Assembly: GCA_040767925.1 (NCBI GenBank)
Contig: JAXGNN010000001.1
Coordinates: 1,088,921 to 1,152,920 of the forward strand
Direction: 5' to 3'
DNA: 64,000 bases
Origin: Christensenellales bacterium
GTDB lineage: Bacteria; Bacillota; Clostridia; Christensenellales; CAG-138
In this document: positions 45,904-50,536 of the stretch, in pieces
Layout: each line of letters starts with the position of its first letter
How positions within the stretch are numbered: the stretch's first letter is position 1
Position numbers and translations under genes: made by a program
The notes under the pieces: generated by a model
What the model was told of the DNA's origin: nothing
What the model saw: only the letters and a program-made list of their open reading frames with translations
Databases searched by the model: none

Positions 45904-46836
45904 TCATTCCGCGAACAGCGGCGAGGAAAGATACCGTTCGCCCGTGTCGGGCAGAATCACGACGATGGTCTTGCCCCTGTTCTCCGGTCGCCTGGCGAGC
46001 TCGATCGCCGCCCATGCCGCGGCGCCCGAGGAAATTCCCACGAGCACGCCTTCGGCCCTGCCGATCGCGCGGCTTGCGGCGAATGCGTCCTCGTTCGTGA
46101 CGGCGATGACCTCGTCATAGATATTCGTGTTGAGCACCTCGGGCACGAAGCCCGCGCCGATGCCCTGTATTTTGTGCGGACCCGCGACGCCCGCGGAGAG
46201 CACCGGGGACGCGGCGGGTTCCACCGCCACGATCCTGATCGCCGGGTTCATCGCCTTCAGGTATTCGCCCGCGCCCGTGATGGTGCCGCCCGTGCCGACG
46301 CCCGCGACGAAGATGTCGACCTTTCCCCCGGTATCCTCCCAGATCTCGGGGCCCGTGGTCCTGCGGTGCACCTCCGGGTTGGCGGGGTTCGTGAACTGGC
46401 CGGGGAGGAAGCTTCCCGGCGTTTCCCGCGCGAGCTCGTCGGCCTTGGCGATGGCGCCCTTCATGCCCTTCGCTCCCTCGGTGAGAACGAGCTCCGCGCC
46501 GTACGCCTTCATGATCTGGCGGCGCTCGACGGACATGGTCTCCGGCATGACGATGATGATCCTGTATCCCCGCGCCGCCGCGACCGACGCGAGGCCGATG
46601 CCCGTGTTGCCTGAGGTCGGCTCGATGATGACGGAGCCTTCCCGGAGAAGCCCTTTCTCCTCCGCGTCGTCGATCATCGCCTTGGCGATGCGGTCCTTGA
46701 CGCTGCCCGCCGGGTTGCAGTATTCGAGCTTGGCGATCAGTTTCGCCCCGAGCCTGTGCTGCCTCTGTGTGTTCGTCAACTCAAGCAGCGGGGTTTTCCC
46801 GATGAGCTGATCGGCGGATGTATAAACGTGCGCCAT
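45904..46836 (-). CDS. cysK: cysteine synthase A (O-acetylserine sulfhydrylase)
   Basis: 310 aa. [17 protein letters not shown]-lysine motif and GTGGTITG. Confidence 0.9.
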
Positions 46837-46895
46837 GATGCAATCTCCTTATCGATATTTTCTATTCTTCCATGTCCTTTTAGTCTGGTTACGTT

Positions 46896-46924
46896 ATTAT
46901 ATGCCAATTAACATATAAAATCAA
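46896..46924 (-). promoter_or_regulatory. promoter candidate for cysK
   Basis: The minus strand reads TTGATT (46924-46919), a 17-nt spacer, then TATAAT (46901-46896). Confidence 0.4.
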
Positions 46925-46938
46925 TATGTTTATATGTT
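46910..46938. promoter_or_regulatory. inverted repeat overlapping the cysK promoter, candidate Rrf2 (CymR-like) operator
   Basis: AACATATAAA - 9 nt - TTTATATGTT, a perfect 10-bp inverted repeat. It shares ATAAACATAT with the inverted repeat upstream of cysE (45507-45539). Confidence 0.4.
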
Positions 46939-47011
46939 TTATGTTCGGATTACCTTGAAGCCCCATAAGCCTTATGGTAAACTGTGTTTATCAAACGAGG
47001 CGGTGTGCACG

Positions 47012-47449
47012 ATGATCGTTTCCACGAAGGGAAGGTACGCCCTGAGCGTCATGATGGACCTCGCGGAGCGCGGCGCGGACGAAGGCGGATACGCGCTTCT
47101 GATGGACATCGCGGTGCGGCAGGGCATCTCGGAAAAATACCTCGAGGGCATCATGTCGGTTTTGAGCAAGAGCGGCCTCGTGCTCGCCCAGCGCGGTAGA
47201 GGCGGCGGCTATAAGCTCGCCAAAGCCCCTGCGGAGTACACGGTGGGCGGCATCCTGAAGCTGACGGAAGGCTCCCTCTCCCCCGTGTCCTGCACGGACG
47301 GCAAGGGCTCCGGTTGCTTCAAGGCGTCCGAATGCCGCATGTATCCCATGTGGGCGAAGCTCGAGCAAATGATCGGGGACTATTTCGAGGGAATCACCAT
47401 CGCAGATTTGATCAACGAGGGCGGCGGCGCGGACAATTATATGATTTGA
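47012..47449 (+). CDS. Rrf2 family transcriptional regulator (CymR/IscR-like)
   Basis: MIVSTKGRYALSVMMDLAERG... is the Rrf2 N-terminus, and Cys residues follow in ..SPVSCTDGKGSGCFKASECRM. The track ORF starts spuriously at 46934. Confidence 0.85.
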   Translation: MIVSTKGRYALSVMMDLAERGADEGGYALLMDIAVRQGISEKYLEGIMSVLSKSGLVLAQRGRGGGYKLAKAPAEYTVGGILKLTEGSLSPVSCTDGKGSGCFKASECRMYPMWAKLEQMIGDYFEGITIADLINEGGGADNYMI

Positions 47450-47481
47450 CTTACAGCTGCGGAAATTCGTCATGATACGGG

Positions 47482-47510
47482 TTGACAGCGCGGACGGCGG
47501 TGTTTATAAT
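47482..47510 (+). promoter_or_regulatory. consensus promoter of the metNIQ leader
   Basis: TTGACA 47482-47487, 17-nt spacer, TATAAT 47505-47510. Confidence 0.55.
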
Positions 47511-47558
47511 AGGCCGTAATTGATCGAACATGAGATTTGAAGAGAGGAGACGCGTCAT

Positions 47559-47681
47559 ATGGCAGGGATAAGGAGCACGAACGTCGGTTCCATGATGATG
47601 TGCATGGACATGTGCATGAGCATGAGCATGCGCATGTTCCCGCGCGCCCCGACATGGGACTCGTCTTGTTCTATCAGCTGA
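47559..47681 (+). promoter_or_regulatory. Met-codon-rich leader peptide ORF (40 codons), putative attenuator leader
   Basis: GAGGAG lies 9 nt upstream of the ATG. The ORF translates as MAGIRSTNVGSMMMCMDMCMSMSMRMFPRAPTWDSSCSIS with stop TGA at 47679-47681. It is absent from the ORF track because it is under 60 aa. Confidence 0.55.
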
Positions 47682-47708
47682 TATTCGCTCGAAAGAGCGC
47701 AATGATGC

Positions 47709-47749
47709 GGGCAGGAAACAACGCGGGTTTCCTGCCCTGATTTTATGTT
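47709..47749 (+). terminator. intrinsic terminator in the metN leader
   Basis: GGGCAGGAAAC (47709-47719) pairs perfectly with GTTTCCTGCCC (47727-47737), 7-nt loop, followed by TGATTTTATGTT. It ends 22 nt before the metN start. Confidence 0.7.
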
Positions 47750-47771
47750 CAGAGAAGACGGAGAAGCGAGC

Positions 47772-48764
47772 ATGATCGAGATTCGGCACCTGACAAAGAC
47801 CTTCCCCATGGCCACCGGGCCCATCACGGCGCTGTCGGACGTCAGCCTTACGATAGACGACGGGGAGGTTTTCGGCATCATCGGCCTTTCCGGCGCGGGC
47901 AAGAGCACGCTCGTGCGCTGCATCAACCTGCTCGAGCGGCCGACGGAGGGCGCCGTGCTGCTCGACGGGAACGACCTGACCAAACTTCCCAAGAAGGAGC
48001 TTCTTCGCGTGCGCCGCATGATCGGCATGATCTTCCAGGGCTTCAACCTGCTCGAGCAGCGGACCGCGCTGGGGAACGTGCTCTTTCCCCTCGAGATCGC
48101 GGGCATGCCGAAAAAGGAGGCGCGGGAGCGCGCGGAAAGCCTCCTCGCGCTCGTGGGGCTCTCCGAGCGGGCGAAGGCGTATCCCTCTCAGCTCTCCGGC
48201 GGGCAGAAGCAGCGCGTGGCCATCGCCCGCGCGCTGGCGACGAAGCCCAAATACCTTTTATGCGACGAGGCGACGAGCGCGCTCGACCCCAACACCACGC
48301 GCTCCATACTGGAATTGCTGCGCGAGATCAACAAAAGCCTCGGCGTGACGATCGTGGTCATCACGCACGAGATGAGCGTCATTGAGCGCATCTGCGACCG
48401 GGTCGCCGTCATCGACAACAGCCGCATCGCGGAAATCGGCCGCGTGAGCGACATATTCACCGACCCGCAGTCCGATATCGCAAAGGAGCTCGTGCTTCCC
48501 CGCGCGAAGGCCGTGGAGCGCATCGCGAGCGACGGCGCAAGGCTTCGGCTCGTGTTCAACGGGGAGGCCTCCACGCGGCCCGTCGTCTCGAACCTCGTGC
48601 TCGAATGCCGGGCGCACGTCAACATCCTCTTCGCCGACATGAAGGACATCGACGGCAGGAACTACGGCCACATGCTCCTGCAGCTTCCCGACGACCCGCG
48701 CCAGACCGAGCGCGTGACGGCGTGGCTTTCGGCAAACGGCGTATCTTTTTCAAGGGAGGCGTAA
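47772..48764 (+). CDS. metN: methionine ABC transporter ATP-binding protein
   Basis: MIEIRHLTKTF.., Walker A GLSGAGKST, LSGGQKQR, and a C-terminal NIL domain (..NILFADMKDIDGRNYGHMLLQL). RBS GGAGAAG. Confidence 0.9.
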   Translation: MIEIRHLTKTFPMATGPITALSDVSLTIDDGEVFGIIGLSGAGKSTLVRCINLLERPTEGAVLLDGNDLTKLPKKELLRVRRMIGMIFQGFNLLEQRTALGNVLFPLEIAGMPKKEARERAESLLALVGLSERAKAYPSQLSGGQKQRVAIARALATKPKYLLCDEATSALDPNTTRSILELLREINKSLGVTIVVITHEMSVIERICDRVAVIDNSRIAEIGRVSDIFTDPQSDIAKELVLPRAKAVERIASDGARLRLVFNGEASTRPVVSNLVLECRAHVNILFADMKDIDGRNYGHMLLQLPDDPRQTERVTAWLSANGVSFSREA

Positions 48765-48766
48765 CC

Positions 48767-49447
48767 ATGTTTTCGGATATGCTCCAAAAGCTCTGGGAGA
48801 GCGGCATCCTGCAGCTCGGGATCTGGGAGACGCTGTACATGACCTTCCTCTCGAGCGCGTTCGCCTACCTCATCGGCCTGCCCCTCGGCCTCGTGCTCTC
48901 CGTCACCGACAAGGGGGGCATACGGCCGATCCCCGCCCTCAACCGCGCGCTCGGCATCCTCGTGAACGCGTTTCGCAGCGTCCCCTTCATCATCCTGATG
49001 GTGGCGCTGCTCCCCGTCGCTAAGTTCGTGGTGGGCACGAGCCTCGGCAACAGGGCGATGATCGTCACCCTCGTCATCGCCGCCGCGCCCTACGTCGCAA
49101 GGATGGTGGAATCCTCCATCAAGGAGGTGGACGCCGGCGTCATCGAGGCCGCGCAGGCCATGGGCGCCTCCTCTTTGCGGATCGTATTCAGGGTGCTCAT
49201 CCCCGAGGCGAAGCCCGCGCTCGTCATCGGCGCCGTCATCTCGAGCGTGACGATCCTCGGCTATTCCGCCATGGCGGGCACCATCGGCGGCGGCGGCCTC
49301 GGCAAGATCGCCATCACCTACGGCTACCAGCGCTTCGAGGACGACATCATCTGGGTTTGCGTCGCGCTCACGATCCTCATCGTGCAGCTCATTCAGGAAT
49401 TCGGCATGCGCCTCGCGCACCGCATCGACAAGCGCGTGCGCCAGTAG
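48767..49447 (+). CDS. metI: methionine ABC transporter permease
   Basis: MFSDMLQKLWESGILQLGIWETLYMTF with a MetI-type pattern. The track ORF starts spuriously at 48605. Confidence 0.9.
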   Translation: MFSDMLQKLWESGILQLGIWETLYMTFLSSAFAYLIGLPLGLVLSVTDKGGIRPIPALNRALGILVNAFRSVPFIILMVALLPVAKFVVGTSLGNRAMIVTLVIAAAPYVARMVESSIKEVDAGVIEAAQAMGASSLRIVFRVLIPEAKPALVIGAVISSVTILGYSAMAGTIGGGGLGKIAITYGYQRFEDDIIWVCVALTILIVQLIQEFGMRLAHRIDKRVRQ

Positions 49448-49666: not shown

Positions 49667-50536
49667 ATGAAAAAGCTGTTCACCATCCTCGTTTCCGCCA
49701 TACTCATCCTGACGCTCGCGGCGTCTTTCGCGGGCTGCGGCACGGCCGGCAACGCCGGCGGCGCAACCCCCAAGGCGCAGGGAACGCCCGACGCGGAGCA
49801 CACCGTCACCGTGGGCGCGAGTTCCACGCCGCACGCGGAGATCCTCGAGCAGGTCAAGGACGCGCTCGCGGCCGAGGGCTACTCGCTCGTGATCGTCGTC
49901 TACGACGATTACGTGCTGCCCAACCAGGCGCTCGCGGACGGCACGCTCGACGCGAACTACTTCCAGCACGTCCCCTACCTCGACAGCTATAACGCCGCAA
50001 ACGGCACGGACCTCGTCCCCGCGGCCTCCGTCCATTACGAGCCCTTCGGCATCTACGGCAACGGCGTCGCGAGCCTCGCGGAGCTCCCGGCCGGCGCCAC
50101 CATCATCATCCCCGCCGACGACAGCAACGAGACGCGCGCGCTGCTCCTGCTCCGGCAGGAGGGCCTCATCGTTTTGCCCGAGGGCGCGAACGCGGCGGAC
50201 GGCGTGACCACGCTTGACATTGCGGACAGCAAAGGGTACAATATCGTCACCGTGCAGGCGGATACGGTCGCCGCGCAGCTCAACAACAGCGACGCGGGCA
50301 CCATCGCCGTCATCAACGGCAATTACGCGCTCGGCGCGGGGCTGAAGATCGCGGACGCGCTCGCCATCGAGGACGCCTCGGGCGACGCGGCCCAGACCTA
50401 CGCCAACATCATCGCGGTGCGCGCGGGCGGCGAAAACAGCGCAAAAATCCAGGCGCTCGTCGCGGCGCTGCAGACGGCCGCCGTCAGGGATTACATCAAT
50501 TCCGCATACAACGGCGCGGTCGTCCCCCTGTTCTGA
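49667..50536 (+). CDS. metQ: methionine-binding lipoprotein (NlpA/MetQ family)
   Basis: 289 aa. Lipobox SFAGCGT and a MetQ pattern (VGASSTPHAEIL.., NYFQH..YL). Confidence 0.9.
   Translation: MKKLFTILVSAILILTLAASFAGCGTAGNAGGATPKAQGTPDAEHTVTVGASSTPHAEILEQVKDALAAEGYSLVIVVYDDYVLPNQALADGTLDANYFQHVPYLDSYNAANGTDLVPAASVHYEPFGIYGNGVASLAELPAGATIIIPADDSNETRALLLLRQEGLIVLPEGANAADGVTTLDIADSKGYNIVTVQADTVAAQLNNSDAGTIAVINGNYALGAGLKIADALAIEDASGDAAQTYANIIAVRAGGENSAKIQALVAALQTAAVRDYINSAYNGAVVPLF

Follow-up and report, generated by a model that had tools for sequence, protein, structure and literature searches.

The 64,000-nt window analysed here belongs to a Christensenellales bacterium (contig JAXGNN010000001.1, positions 1,088,921 to 1,152,920 of the forward strand). 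Directly upstream of its methionine importer operon, metN-metI-metQ (metNIQ), lies a leader that is in all likelihood a ribosome-mediated, methionine-responsive transcription attenuator controlling the importer. The leader combines a short open reading frame (ORF), rich in Met and Cys codons, with an intrinsic terminator, and would sense charged elongator tRNA-Met and possibly tRNA-Cys as well. A preliminary description of this DNA had recognised the layout of the trpL, hisL and leuL attenuators, with regulatory codons that match the methionine cargo; this proposal is supported by conservation, covariation and ribosome-position folding. The promoter, the 40-codon ORF with its Shine-Dalgarno (SD) sequence, the Met/Cys run, the GAAA hairpin and the 11-bp terminator were all found where that description had placed them. 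One further element, the SD-proximal anti-antiterminator strand at 47547-47561, was absent from it. The elements of the leader are given below, with the evidence in brackets (uORF, the leader's upstream ORF; MFE, minimum free energy fold).

47482..47510, + strand: sigma-70 promoter, TTGACA (47482-47487), 17-nt spacer, TATAAT (47505-47510) (12/12 match to consensus)
47544..47549, + strand: GAGGAG, the Shine-Dalgarno sequence serving the leader ORF; the ATG at 47559 follows after 9 nt (seen in the sequence)
47547..47561, + strand: R0, running from the SD to the start codon; pairing partner of R2, the uORF tail; proposed anti-antiterminator ('protector') strand (MFE, RNAalifold, compensatory changes)
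47559..47681, + strand: leader ORF, 40 codons plus TGA, peptide MAGIRSTNVGSMMMCMDMCMSMSMRMFPRAPTWDSSCSIS (sequence, peptide profile, gap lengths)
47592..47636, + strand: regulatory codon run, nine AUG and two UGC in 15 codons; proposed stall site (unique in the window, kept in relatives)
47606..47639, + strand: H1, a hairpin within the Met/Cys run, 47606-47618/47627-47639 in the MFE (MFE, RNAalifold)
47653..47671, + strand: R2, the uORF tail CATGGGACTCGTCTTGTTC; alternative partners are R0 or the terminator 5' arm and loop (folds, duplex energies)
47682..47704, + strand: small hairpin between stop codon and terminator, core CGCTC-GAAA-GAGCG at 47686-47699; nested in the antiterminator (folds)
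47709..47747, + strand: intrinsic terminator, stem 47709-47719/47727-47737, loop AACGCGG, tail TGATTTTATG (sequence, compensatory changes)
47715..47727, + strand: R3, the proposed antiterminator target segment in the terminator (duplex tests)

The Met run is the most distinctive of these elements. The six frames of the 64 kb contain 94,806 stop-free 15-codon windows; only one of these reaches nine Met codons, and every 15-codon window with at least seven Met maps to the leader or to its antisense strand, which is also Met-dense because CATG is palindromic. Transcription is predicted from the promoter sequence to start near 47517, and the uORF begins 48 nt 3' of the -10 box; shuffles of the 1.4-kb region give an expectation of 0.8 promoter-like sites. 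The 3' end of R2 lies 7 nt before the stop codon, so that a ribosome terminating there would cover R2. Seven of the 11 pairs of the terminator stem are G-C, and the loop measures 7 nt.

Relatives of the leader were obtained by scanning one genome per species with the MetN protein. This gave 80 metN loci, mostly from metagenome-assembled genomes (MAGs) of Oscillospiraceae, Ruminococcaceae and other Clostridia, in which MetN is 57-71% identical to that of the window. In 32 of the 80 loci a stop-free window of 15 codons with 5-12 Met lies approximately 150-200 nt upstream of metN, and in 21 of those 32 it holds at least seven Met (runs such as MMMGMMRMMMMCMMM and MMMDMMMCMCSMCMM). The runs are found in short ORFs of 18-40 codons with GAAAGGAG upstream, and nearly all are followed, 3' of the uORF, by a strong intrinsic terminator. 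The SD, start and stop of the uORF are conserved, the SD as GAAAGGAG or GGAG at the same place as the GAGGAG of the window. The succession of promoter, uORF and operon is common to all 30 relatives examined (L001-L068); their promoters match at least 10 of 12 consensus positions, with a 17-nt spacer and 29-54 nt before the uORF start, and 22 of the 30 have a perfect TTGACA-17-TATAAT. Such near-consensus promoters fit a unit that is constitutively transcribed and regulated downstream. The genes downstream in the metN loci are always metN-metI-metQ, sometimes with a Cys/Met pyridoxal phosphate (PLP) enzyme inserted, while the genes upstream of the leader vary by locus (Rrf2, FliB_C, GDSL lipase). 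The joint conservation of uORF, Met run and terminator, with no indels other than frame-preserving ones, and the covarying helices speak for the interpretation given in the preliminary description. A cultured carrier is Huintestinicola butyrica strain Sanger_06 (L019, NZ_JAOQKB010000002.1), in which a short leader, MMAMMMCKCCEMNIEKSAVSSAFCE, and a terminator are located approximately 148-28 nt upstream of metN.

A profile built from 21 leader peptides matches 190 protein clusters of a large protein collection (E <= 0.001). Among the 120 clusters listed there is no informative name, the single source name being 'hypothetical protein', and one cluster (P0109) is identical to the leader peptide of the window.

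The leader reading frame appears to be under selection, as would be expected if it is translated. In an alignment of 20 leader sequences, all 42 gap runs within the uORF columns have lengths in multiples of three; the peptide is free to vary in length and in its N-terminal residues, but the Met codons stay in frame with the SD-led start. Within the runs 251 of 426 residues (59%) are Met, and among the rest Cys has a share of 35%, as against 1.7% in MetN; it is encoded by TGC (51) and TGT (10), roughly the ratio in the metN genes (142:41). The use of both codons at about the metN ratio hints at selection on the Cys codons as such. At one of the two conserved Cys positions, however, the variation is YRC (Cys, Tyr, Arg or His) and simply keeps a hairpin paired, so that a role of Cys in sensing is put forward as a possibility. 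In the tail of the uORF, where the family consensus of R2 is GGCTCGCC-TTGTTTC, a TCG (Ser) and a TGT (Cys) codon are invariant in the aligned core leaders, which points to a constraint at the level of the RNA.

Three helices are found in agreement by RNAalifold on the alignment and by the MFEs of the individual sequences: the terminator, H1 and R0:R2. In the alignment 86.8% of their cells are paired, with double changes in 15 pairs, a result reached by none of 500 shuffles; when the helices are slid along the alignment as controls, 29-54% of cells are paired. Compensatory changes occur in 8 of 12 aligned stem pairs of the terminator and in 5 of 7 pairs of R0:R2, while the pairs of H1, whose register kept in the family is 47611-47618/47627-47634, vary only by one-sided changes of G-U to G-C or A-U. 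In the MFE of the window R0:R2 is a 13-bp helix (47547-47561/47653-47667), with a duplex energy of -13.4 kcal/mol.

Register ambiguity at alignment columns 130 and 199-200 blurs the counts for the lower antiterminator helix, and an alignment-free test was added for this reason. In it each leader's own partner segments (cognate) were compared with those of the other leaders (non-cognate) over 5000 permutations. Mean energies were -19.1 (cognate) and -8.6 kcal/mol (non-cognate) for the terminator arms, -15.1 and -10.5 for R0:R2, and -12.05 and -10.10 for R2:R3; in each of the three cases none of the 5000 permutations gave a value as low. R0:R3, taken as a negative control, showed no difference between cognate and non-cognate segments. 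A further 12-bp complementarity in the window, between 47526-47537 (GAACATGAGATT) and 47739-47750 (GATTTTATGTTC), would link the leader's 5' end with the U-tail region and appears in the MFE (-12.7 kcal/mol). It was rejected as a functional pairing, being not conserved and giving -4.73 for cognate against -4.67 for non-cognate segments, and is probably due to chance or specific to the lineage.

The antiterminator would be formed by pairing of R2 with the terminator. R2 is complementary to the distal half of the terminator 5' arm and to the terminator loop, and the loop (consensus GCGAG) is conserved without other visible reason. To represent the stalled state, relatives were folded with the ribosome placed at the last Met codon and the terminator 3' arm left out. 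In most of them R2 then pairs with 9-12 of the 11-16 nt of the 5' arm and encloses the small hairpin, at whose position a hairpin of differing sequence is present in about 17 of 20 folded relatives. The interaction of R2 with the 5' arm lies 2-3 standard deviations below dinucleotide shuffles in about half of 30 relatives (14/30 at <=5/200 shuffles), among them short leaders of unrelated sequence (L014, L026, L030 and L034). On the alignment 82% of the antiterminator cells are paired, compared with 30-67% in slid controls.

In the window itself the ribosome was moved along the uORF, all RNA 5' of the ribosome being masked and the terminator 3' arm treated as not yet transcribed. With the A site anywhere from 47592 to 47649, 7-8 of the 11 nt of the 5' arm are paired upstream, the partner being mostly 47664-47671 and, at three A-site positions, 47636-47645. 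With the A site between 47664 and the stop codon, 0-2 of the 11 nt are so paired. In these model folds the 5' arm is thus sequestered for a ribosome decoding the Met run and released once the ribosome reaches the end of the uORF, the position dependence expected of an attenuator.

The two pairings proposed by eye in that description fared differently. Its '1:2' pairing (47598-47606 with 47627-47635) is real, with 9 bp and -11.2 kcal/mol, but it is one register of H1, for which the MFE uses 47606-47618/47627-47639. Its '2:3' pairing from 47635-47643 does appear for a few ribosome positions, but is weak (5 bp, -8.8 kcal/mol), and the assignment of 47635-47643 as the antiterminator strand was not upheld: family-wide conservation points to a strand lying more 3', 47658-47671, in the uORF tail.

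These elements suggest the following scheme. The consensus promoter would fire constitutively and a ribosome would load on the 40-codon leader ORF. With ample Met-tRNA, this ribosome would run to the UGA and cover R2, the terminator at 47709-47737 would form, and transcription would stop before metN. When Met-tRNA is scarce, the ribosome would stall in the nine-AUG run (47592-47636) and R2 would stay exposed; it could then pair with R3, that is, the distal 5' arm and loop at 47715-47727, enclosing the GAAA hairpin. The 3' arm of the terminator would be left without a partner, and RNA polymerase would read through into metNIQ. If the leader is not translated, R0 would pair with R2 and the terminator would form by default. 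We infer that the uORF is translated, that ribosomes would stall at its AUG codons under Met limitation and so raise read-through, and that following ribosomes would keep R0 occupied during the stall.

Several observations weigh against this scheme. Equilibrium folds of the full transcript give the terminator a probability of about 1.0 at every ribosome position; since the terminator always wins at equilibrium, the switch must be kinetic. Equilibrium folding was for this reason discarded as a test of the switch, only folds of the nascent transcript lacking the 3' arm being able to discriminate. If R0 is left free behind the stalled ribosome, R0:R2 re-forms and blocks the antiterminator, so that the model can work only if an initiating or queued ribosome sits on R0 for as long as the stall lasts. 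Covariation of the antiterminator is moderate, with 5 of 500 shuffles reaching its score and few double changes. In the window R2:R3 amounts to about -6 kcal/mol, which is no better than shuffles (z = -0.2), and in the cognate test the window value of -10.4 is barely below the non-cognate -9.8. The U tract of the window terminator (UGAUUUUAUG) is shorter and poorer than in relatives. For distant leader families from metagenomes, simple tests of the antiterminator and of R0 gave a mixed picture: positive for L126, L118 and L105, and not positive for L132, L150, L100, L116, L119 and L109. Finally, methionine starvation should also lower the charging of initiator tRNA, which could counter induction. 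By folding and duplex energies, the family as a whole supports the antiterminator, whose pairing in the window itself is weak.

Three other explanations of the leader were weighed, all of which appear to fit the comparative data less well than Met attenuation. In the first, the leader is an arrest-peptide attenuator, in which the ribosome is stalled by the nascent Met/Cys-rich peptide and a small molecule (such as free methionine or S-adenosylmethionine, SAM) acting jointly, as in TnaC with tryptophan. The residues R-A-Q-K after the run are conserved as amino acids while their third codon positions vary, and could reflect a constraint on the peptide; the third-position changes of the R codon (CGC/CGT), however, also keep H1 paired through G-U. 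Known arrest peptides are sequence-specific, whereas the number and arrangement of Met residues here vary widely, from MMSMCSM to MMMGMMRMMMMCMMM. The logic would moreover run backwards, a ligand-induced stall exposing R2 and raising the importer when methionine is plentiful. We regard this explanation as very unlikely.

Slightly less probable still is a functional Met/Cys-rich small peptide, with a role in metal binding or redox chemistry, the terminator being an ordinary partial one and metNIQ being controlled at its promoter by an Rrf2 (CymR/IscR-like) repressor. The Mx(1-2)M and Cys motifs of the leader resemble Cu(I)-binding motifs, gene callers predict leader peptides as proteins, and an Rrf2 regulator and cysK lie directly upstream in the window and in L081-L083. 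The upstream neighbour changes among loci, however, while the leader always travels with met genes. The peptide, 18-40 residues in length, has no conserved residue besides Met and Cys outside the RNA-constrained tail, and a function of the peptide alone leaves unexplained the covarying helices that link the SD region, the uORF tail and the terminator. Least credible of the three is an untranslated RNA element with an incidental ORF, whose CAUG/AUG repeats would be bound by a TRAP-like factor or other protein, or by a ligand as in a new riboswitch: the run of the window does read (CATGNN)x6, with C invariant at the third position of each intervening codon, and folds into a conserved hairpin, but relatives carry ATGATGATG runs without that period, which led us to reject a periodic protein-binding repeat, the SD spacing, in-frame start, stop-to-R2 distance and multiple-of-three indels are conserved, and no Rfam model fits.

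The known RNA sensors of methionine supply were also considered. A permissive Rfam scan of 46500-48800 gave no SAM riboswitch or T-box match at E-values up to 10, and no Rfam family reaches its gathering score anywhere in the window or on the leader in 20 related loci, wcaG included. No SAM riboswitch model reaches its gathering score in 60 related loci, which include 40 metN loci without a strong Met run. In one such scan the T-box model (RF00230) detects a T-box directly upstream of an orthologous metN (L077:2682-2937, 107.5 bits against a gathering score of 93), so that the negative T-box result on the window has power. As judged from these models, a SAM riboswitch and a T-box are excluded for the window leader, in agreement with the preliminary description, which had recognised neither. 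The best match below threshold is to the wcaG RNA (RF01761, gathering score 42), which scores 24.6 bits over 47676-47777 (E = 0.078). It covers the small hairpin, the terminator and the start of metN and depends on both hairpins; being below the gathering score, it was taken as a chance resemblance of two hairpins and not as a wcaG RNA.

The specifier loop of the L077 T-box reads GAA-C-AUG-G, which identifies a methionine T-box at the position held elsewhere by the Met leader peptide. A sensor of tRNA-Met charging thus occupies the same position in an orthologous locus.

The genes around the leader are those of a methionine importer and of sulfur metabolism:

47760..48764, + strand: metN, with its own SD GGAGAAG at 47760-47766 and ATG at 47772; ABC ATPase with NIL domain (Pfam ABC_tran and NIL)
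48605..49447, + strand: metI permease; the span is that of the ORF, the true start being probably at about 48.76-48.78 kb (Pfam BPD_transp_1)
49667..50536, + strand: metQ, NlpA-family substrate-binding lipoprotein (Pfam Lipoprotein_9, 222 bits)
46934-47449: Rrf2-family regulator (best equivalog matches IscR and CymR, both under cutoff)
minus strand, divergent: cysK (TIGR01139, 456 bits)

The best NCBIfam match of metN is MetN TIGR02314 and that of metQ is the MetQ/NlpA family, each under its cutoff. The window has a G+C content of approximately 61%, and its MetN is at most 71% identical to proteins of Oscillospiraceae/Eubacteriales MAGs. cysK and the Rrf2 gene occupy 45904-47449, directly upstream of the leader, and the Rrf2 gene adjoins the leader also in L081-L083. 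A promoter-level control of sulfur metabolism, by the Rrf2 protein, may operate on top of the attenuator.

Similar leaders are also found in other genomic contexts. Metagenomes were scanned with the pattern ATGTGCATG-N6-ATGTGCATG, microsatellite noise being discarded. About half of the pattern matches (e.g. L091, L093, L099, L113, L128 and L140) proved to be eukaryote-like TG/CA microsatellites, mostly marine, and are unrelated. The scan yielded approximately 50 bacterial leaders in several distinct peptide families, with strong terminators in all of them, and most of these precede metN-metI-metQ or metQ-metN-metI operons.

In L071 (4719-5082) a leader, MKYAAISENMMMYMCMRRMCMRT, with its own consensus promoter and terminator lies between metI and a separate NlpA/MetQ gene. 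L072 and L056 share this arrangement, and metN has no Met leader in any of the three; the leader unit is, by its layout, a second transcription unit inside the met cluster. L132 (minus strand, uORF approximately 2503-2611 in the oriented contig) and L150 (1911-2010) are GC-rich metagenome contigs with a Met/Cys leader, MLNAILMTAMAMCMYMMCMPTAVG. These two leaders have a TTGACA promoter nearby, no clear SD, and a terminator, ACGACCCA...TGGGTCGTTTTG, followed by the gene of MetY, a homocysteine synthase (731 bits to NCBIfam NF006096, whose cutoff is 726), so that a Met-run leader here precedes a biosynthetic gene in a different lineage. In L119 (minus strand, uORF approximately 345-444 in the oriented contig) a leader, MFRSMCFIIEQITMCMMMMCMNDGSSPGVTDV, and a terminator stand before a LivJ-like (Peripla_BP_6) binding protein, perhaps a component of another type of system for taking up methionine. 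The presence of Met leaders before metNIQ, metQ-first operons, a separate metQ, an operon with a Cys/Met PLP enzyme, and metY amounts to a match between the leader and the function of the genes behind it.

As a broader and tentative proposal, which we consider possible rather than probable, Met-run leaders could form a widespread, unannotated class which, in Oscillospiraceae and their relatives among gut and rumen Clostridia, stands in for S-box or T-box elements in controlling methionine uptake. Each leader would sense the charging of Met and Cys tRNAs together, with an unusual protector helix built from the ribosome-binding region that also reads initiation, itself methionine-dependent; analogues would have arisen or spread elsewhere before metQ-first operons, metY and a LivJ-like protein. 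Upstream of metNIQ, dozens of genomes of gut and rumen Clostridia have kept a dense Met/Cys leader, which indicates a possible way in which this large, poorly cultured clade senses its sulfur amino acid supply at metNIQ. The attenuation proposed here would add methionine to the specificities of leader-peptide attenuation, for which a properly described Met case had been missing, and the 190 unnamed small-protein clusters can be re-annotated as regulatory leaders instead of hypothetical proteins. It also raises a question specific to methionine, in that the regulatory codon is the start codon, and starvation hits both initiator and elongator tRNA. H. butyrica is a possible experimental system for direct tests.

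Leader-peptide attenuation is a textbook mechanism. In Firmicutes, where control of met genes acts through a terminator, it is usually exerted by SAM riboswitches (S-box/SAM-I and others). To our knowledge, the leader families in Rfam are those for Trp, His, Leu, Thr, Phe and Leu/Phe, with none for Met. The preliminary description had been aware of no Met-codon leader attenuator. That statement stands for characterised cases, none of which was found in the open-access literature searched; one untested annotation, the sole precedent, qualifies it. This is the 'metL' leader peptide, MSTTSDRTPATEATTTPGARCMCRRMCAF, upstream of metNIQ in Streptomyces lividans TK24, annotated from RNA-seq and proposed to be a methionine-dependent attenuator (Droste et al. 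2021, PMC8079986). Its transcript is leaderless, with no typical intrinsic terminator and no comparative or experimental support (PMC8079986). Compared by description, metL has only two internal Met codons and its host belongs to the Actinobacteria, in which no RNA structures were found upstream of methionine operons, and no attenuation-type RNA control of them was reported, by Seliverstov et al. 2005 (PMC1262725); the Cys/Met alternation at its C-terminus, CMCRRMCAF, resembles the YMCMRRMCM of L071. For Firmicutes, leader peptides were held to be rare and described as a novelty by Naville and Gautheret, with none for Met among those given (PMC2965389).

The nearest analogues for sulfur amino acids are the cysS uORFC-8-2 motif (PMC8632094) and, in mycobacteria, attenuators with a leaderless polycysteine uORF (bioRxiv 10.1101/834739; also Seliverstov et al. 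2005, PMC1262725). In these, as is proposed for the leader described here, sulfur-amino-acid codons sense scarcity of their own amino acid and control downstream operon genes, Cys being enriched here as well. Both have Cys-only runs, and the mycobacterial uORFs are leaderless and lack intrinsic terminators (PMC1262725), whereas the present leader is Met-dominated, SD-led and followed by a strong terminator. The window uORF falls outside the polycysteine class, being SD-led and having single Cys codons interspersed among Met codons.

The Met T-box (RF00230), like the proposed attenuator, reads the charging of tRNA-Met to antiterminate before methionine transporter genes, but it binds uncharged tRNA directly and needs no translation, and the window leader has no T-box features. 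SAM riboswitches differ in sensing SAM through an RNA aptamer.

The closest resemblance is to trpL, hisL, leuL, thrL, ilvL and pheL of the Proteobacteria. Common to these and to the present leader family are a promoter-proximal short ORF rich in codons for the end product, an intrinsic terminator ahead of the first structural gene, terminator and antiterminator pairings that rule each other out and would be chosen by ribosome position, and a third pairing that would enforce termination when the leader is not translated. In the trp leader the terminator is more stable than the antiterminator and the choice is kinetic; the folds of the window leader show the same order of stability and would call for the same kind of choice. 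The differences concern the codon, the strands and the setting. The regulatory codon here is AUG, with UGC/UGU in addition, and the run is very dense, reaching 12 Met in 15 codons. The cargo genes encode an importer, and the hosts are Clostridia. The antiterminator here would target the terminator at its loop and the distal part of its 5' arm, and the protector strand, in contrast with region 1 of trp, would be the segment from the SD to the start codon and not the segment of the regulatory codons.

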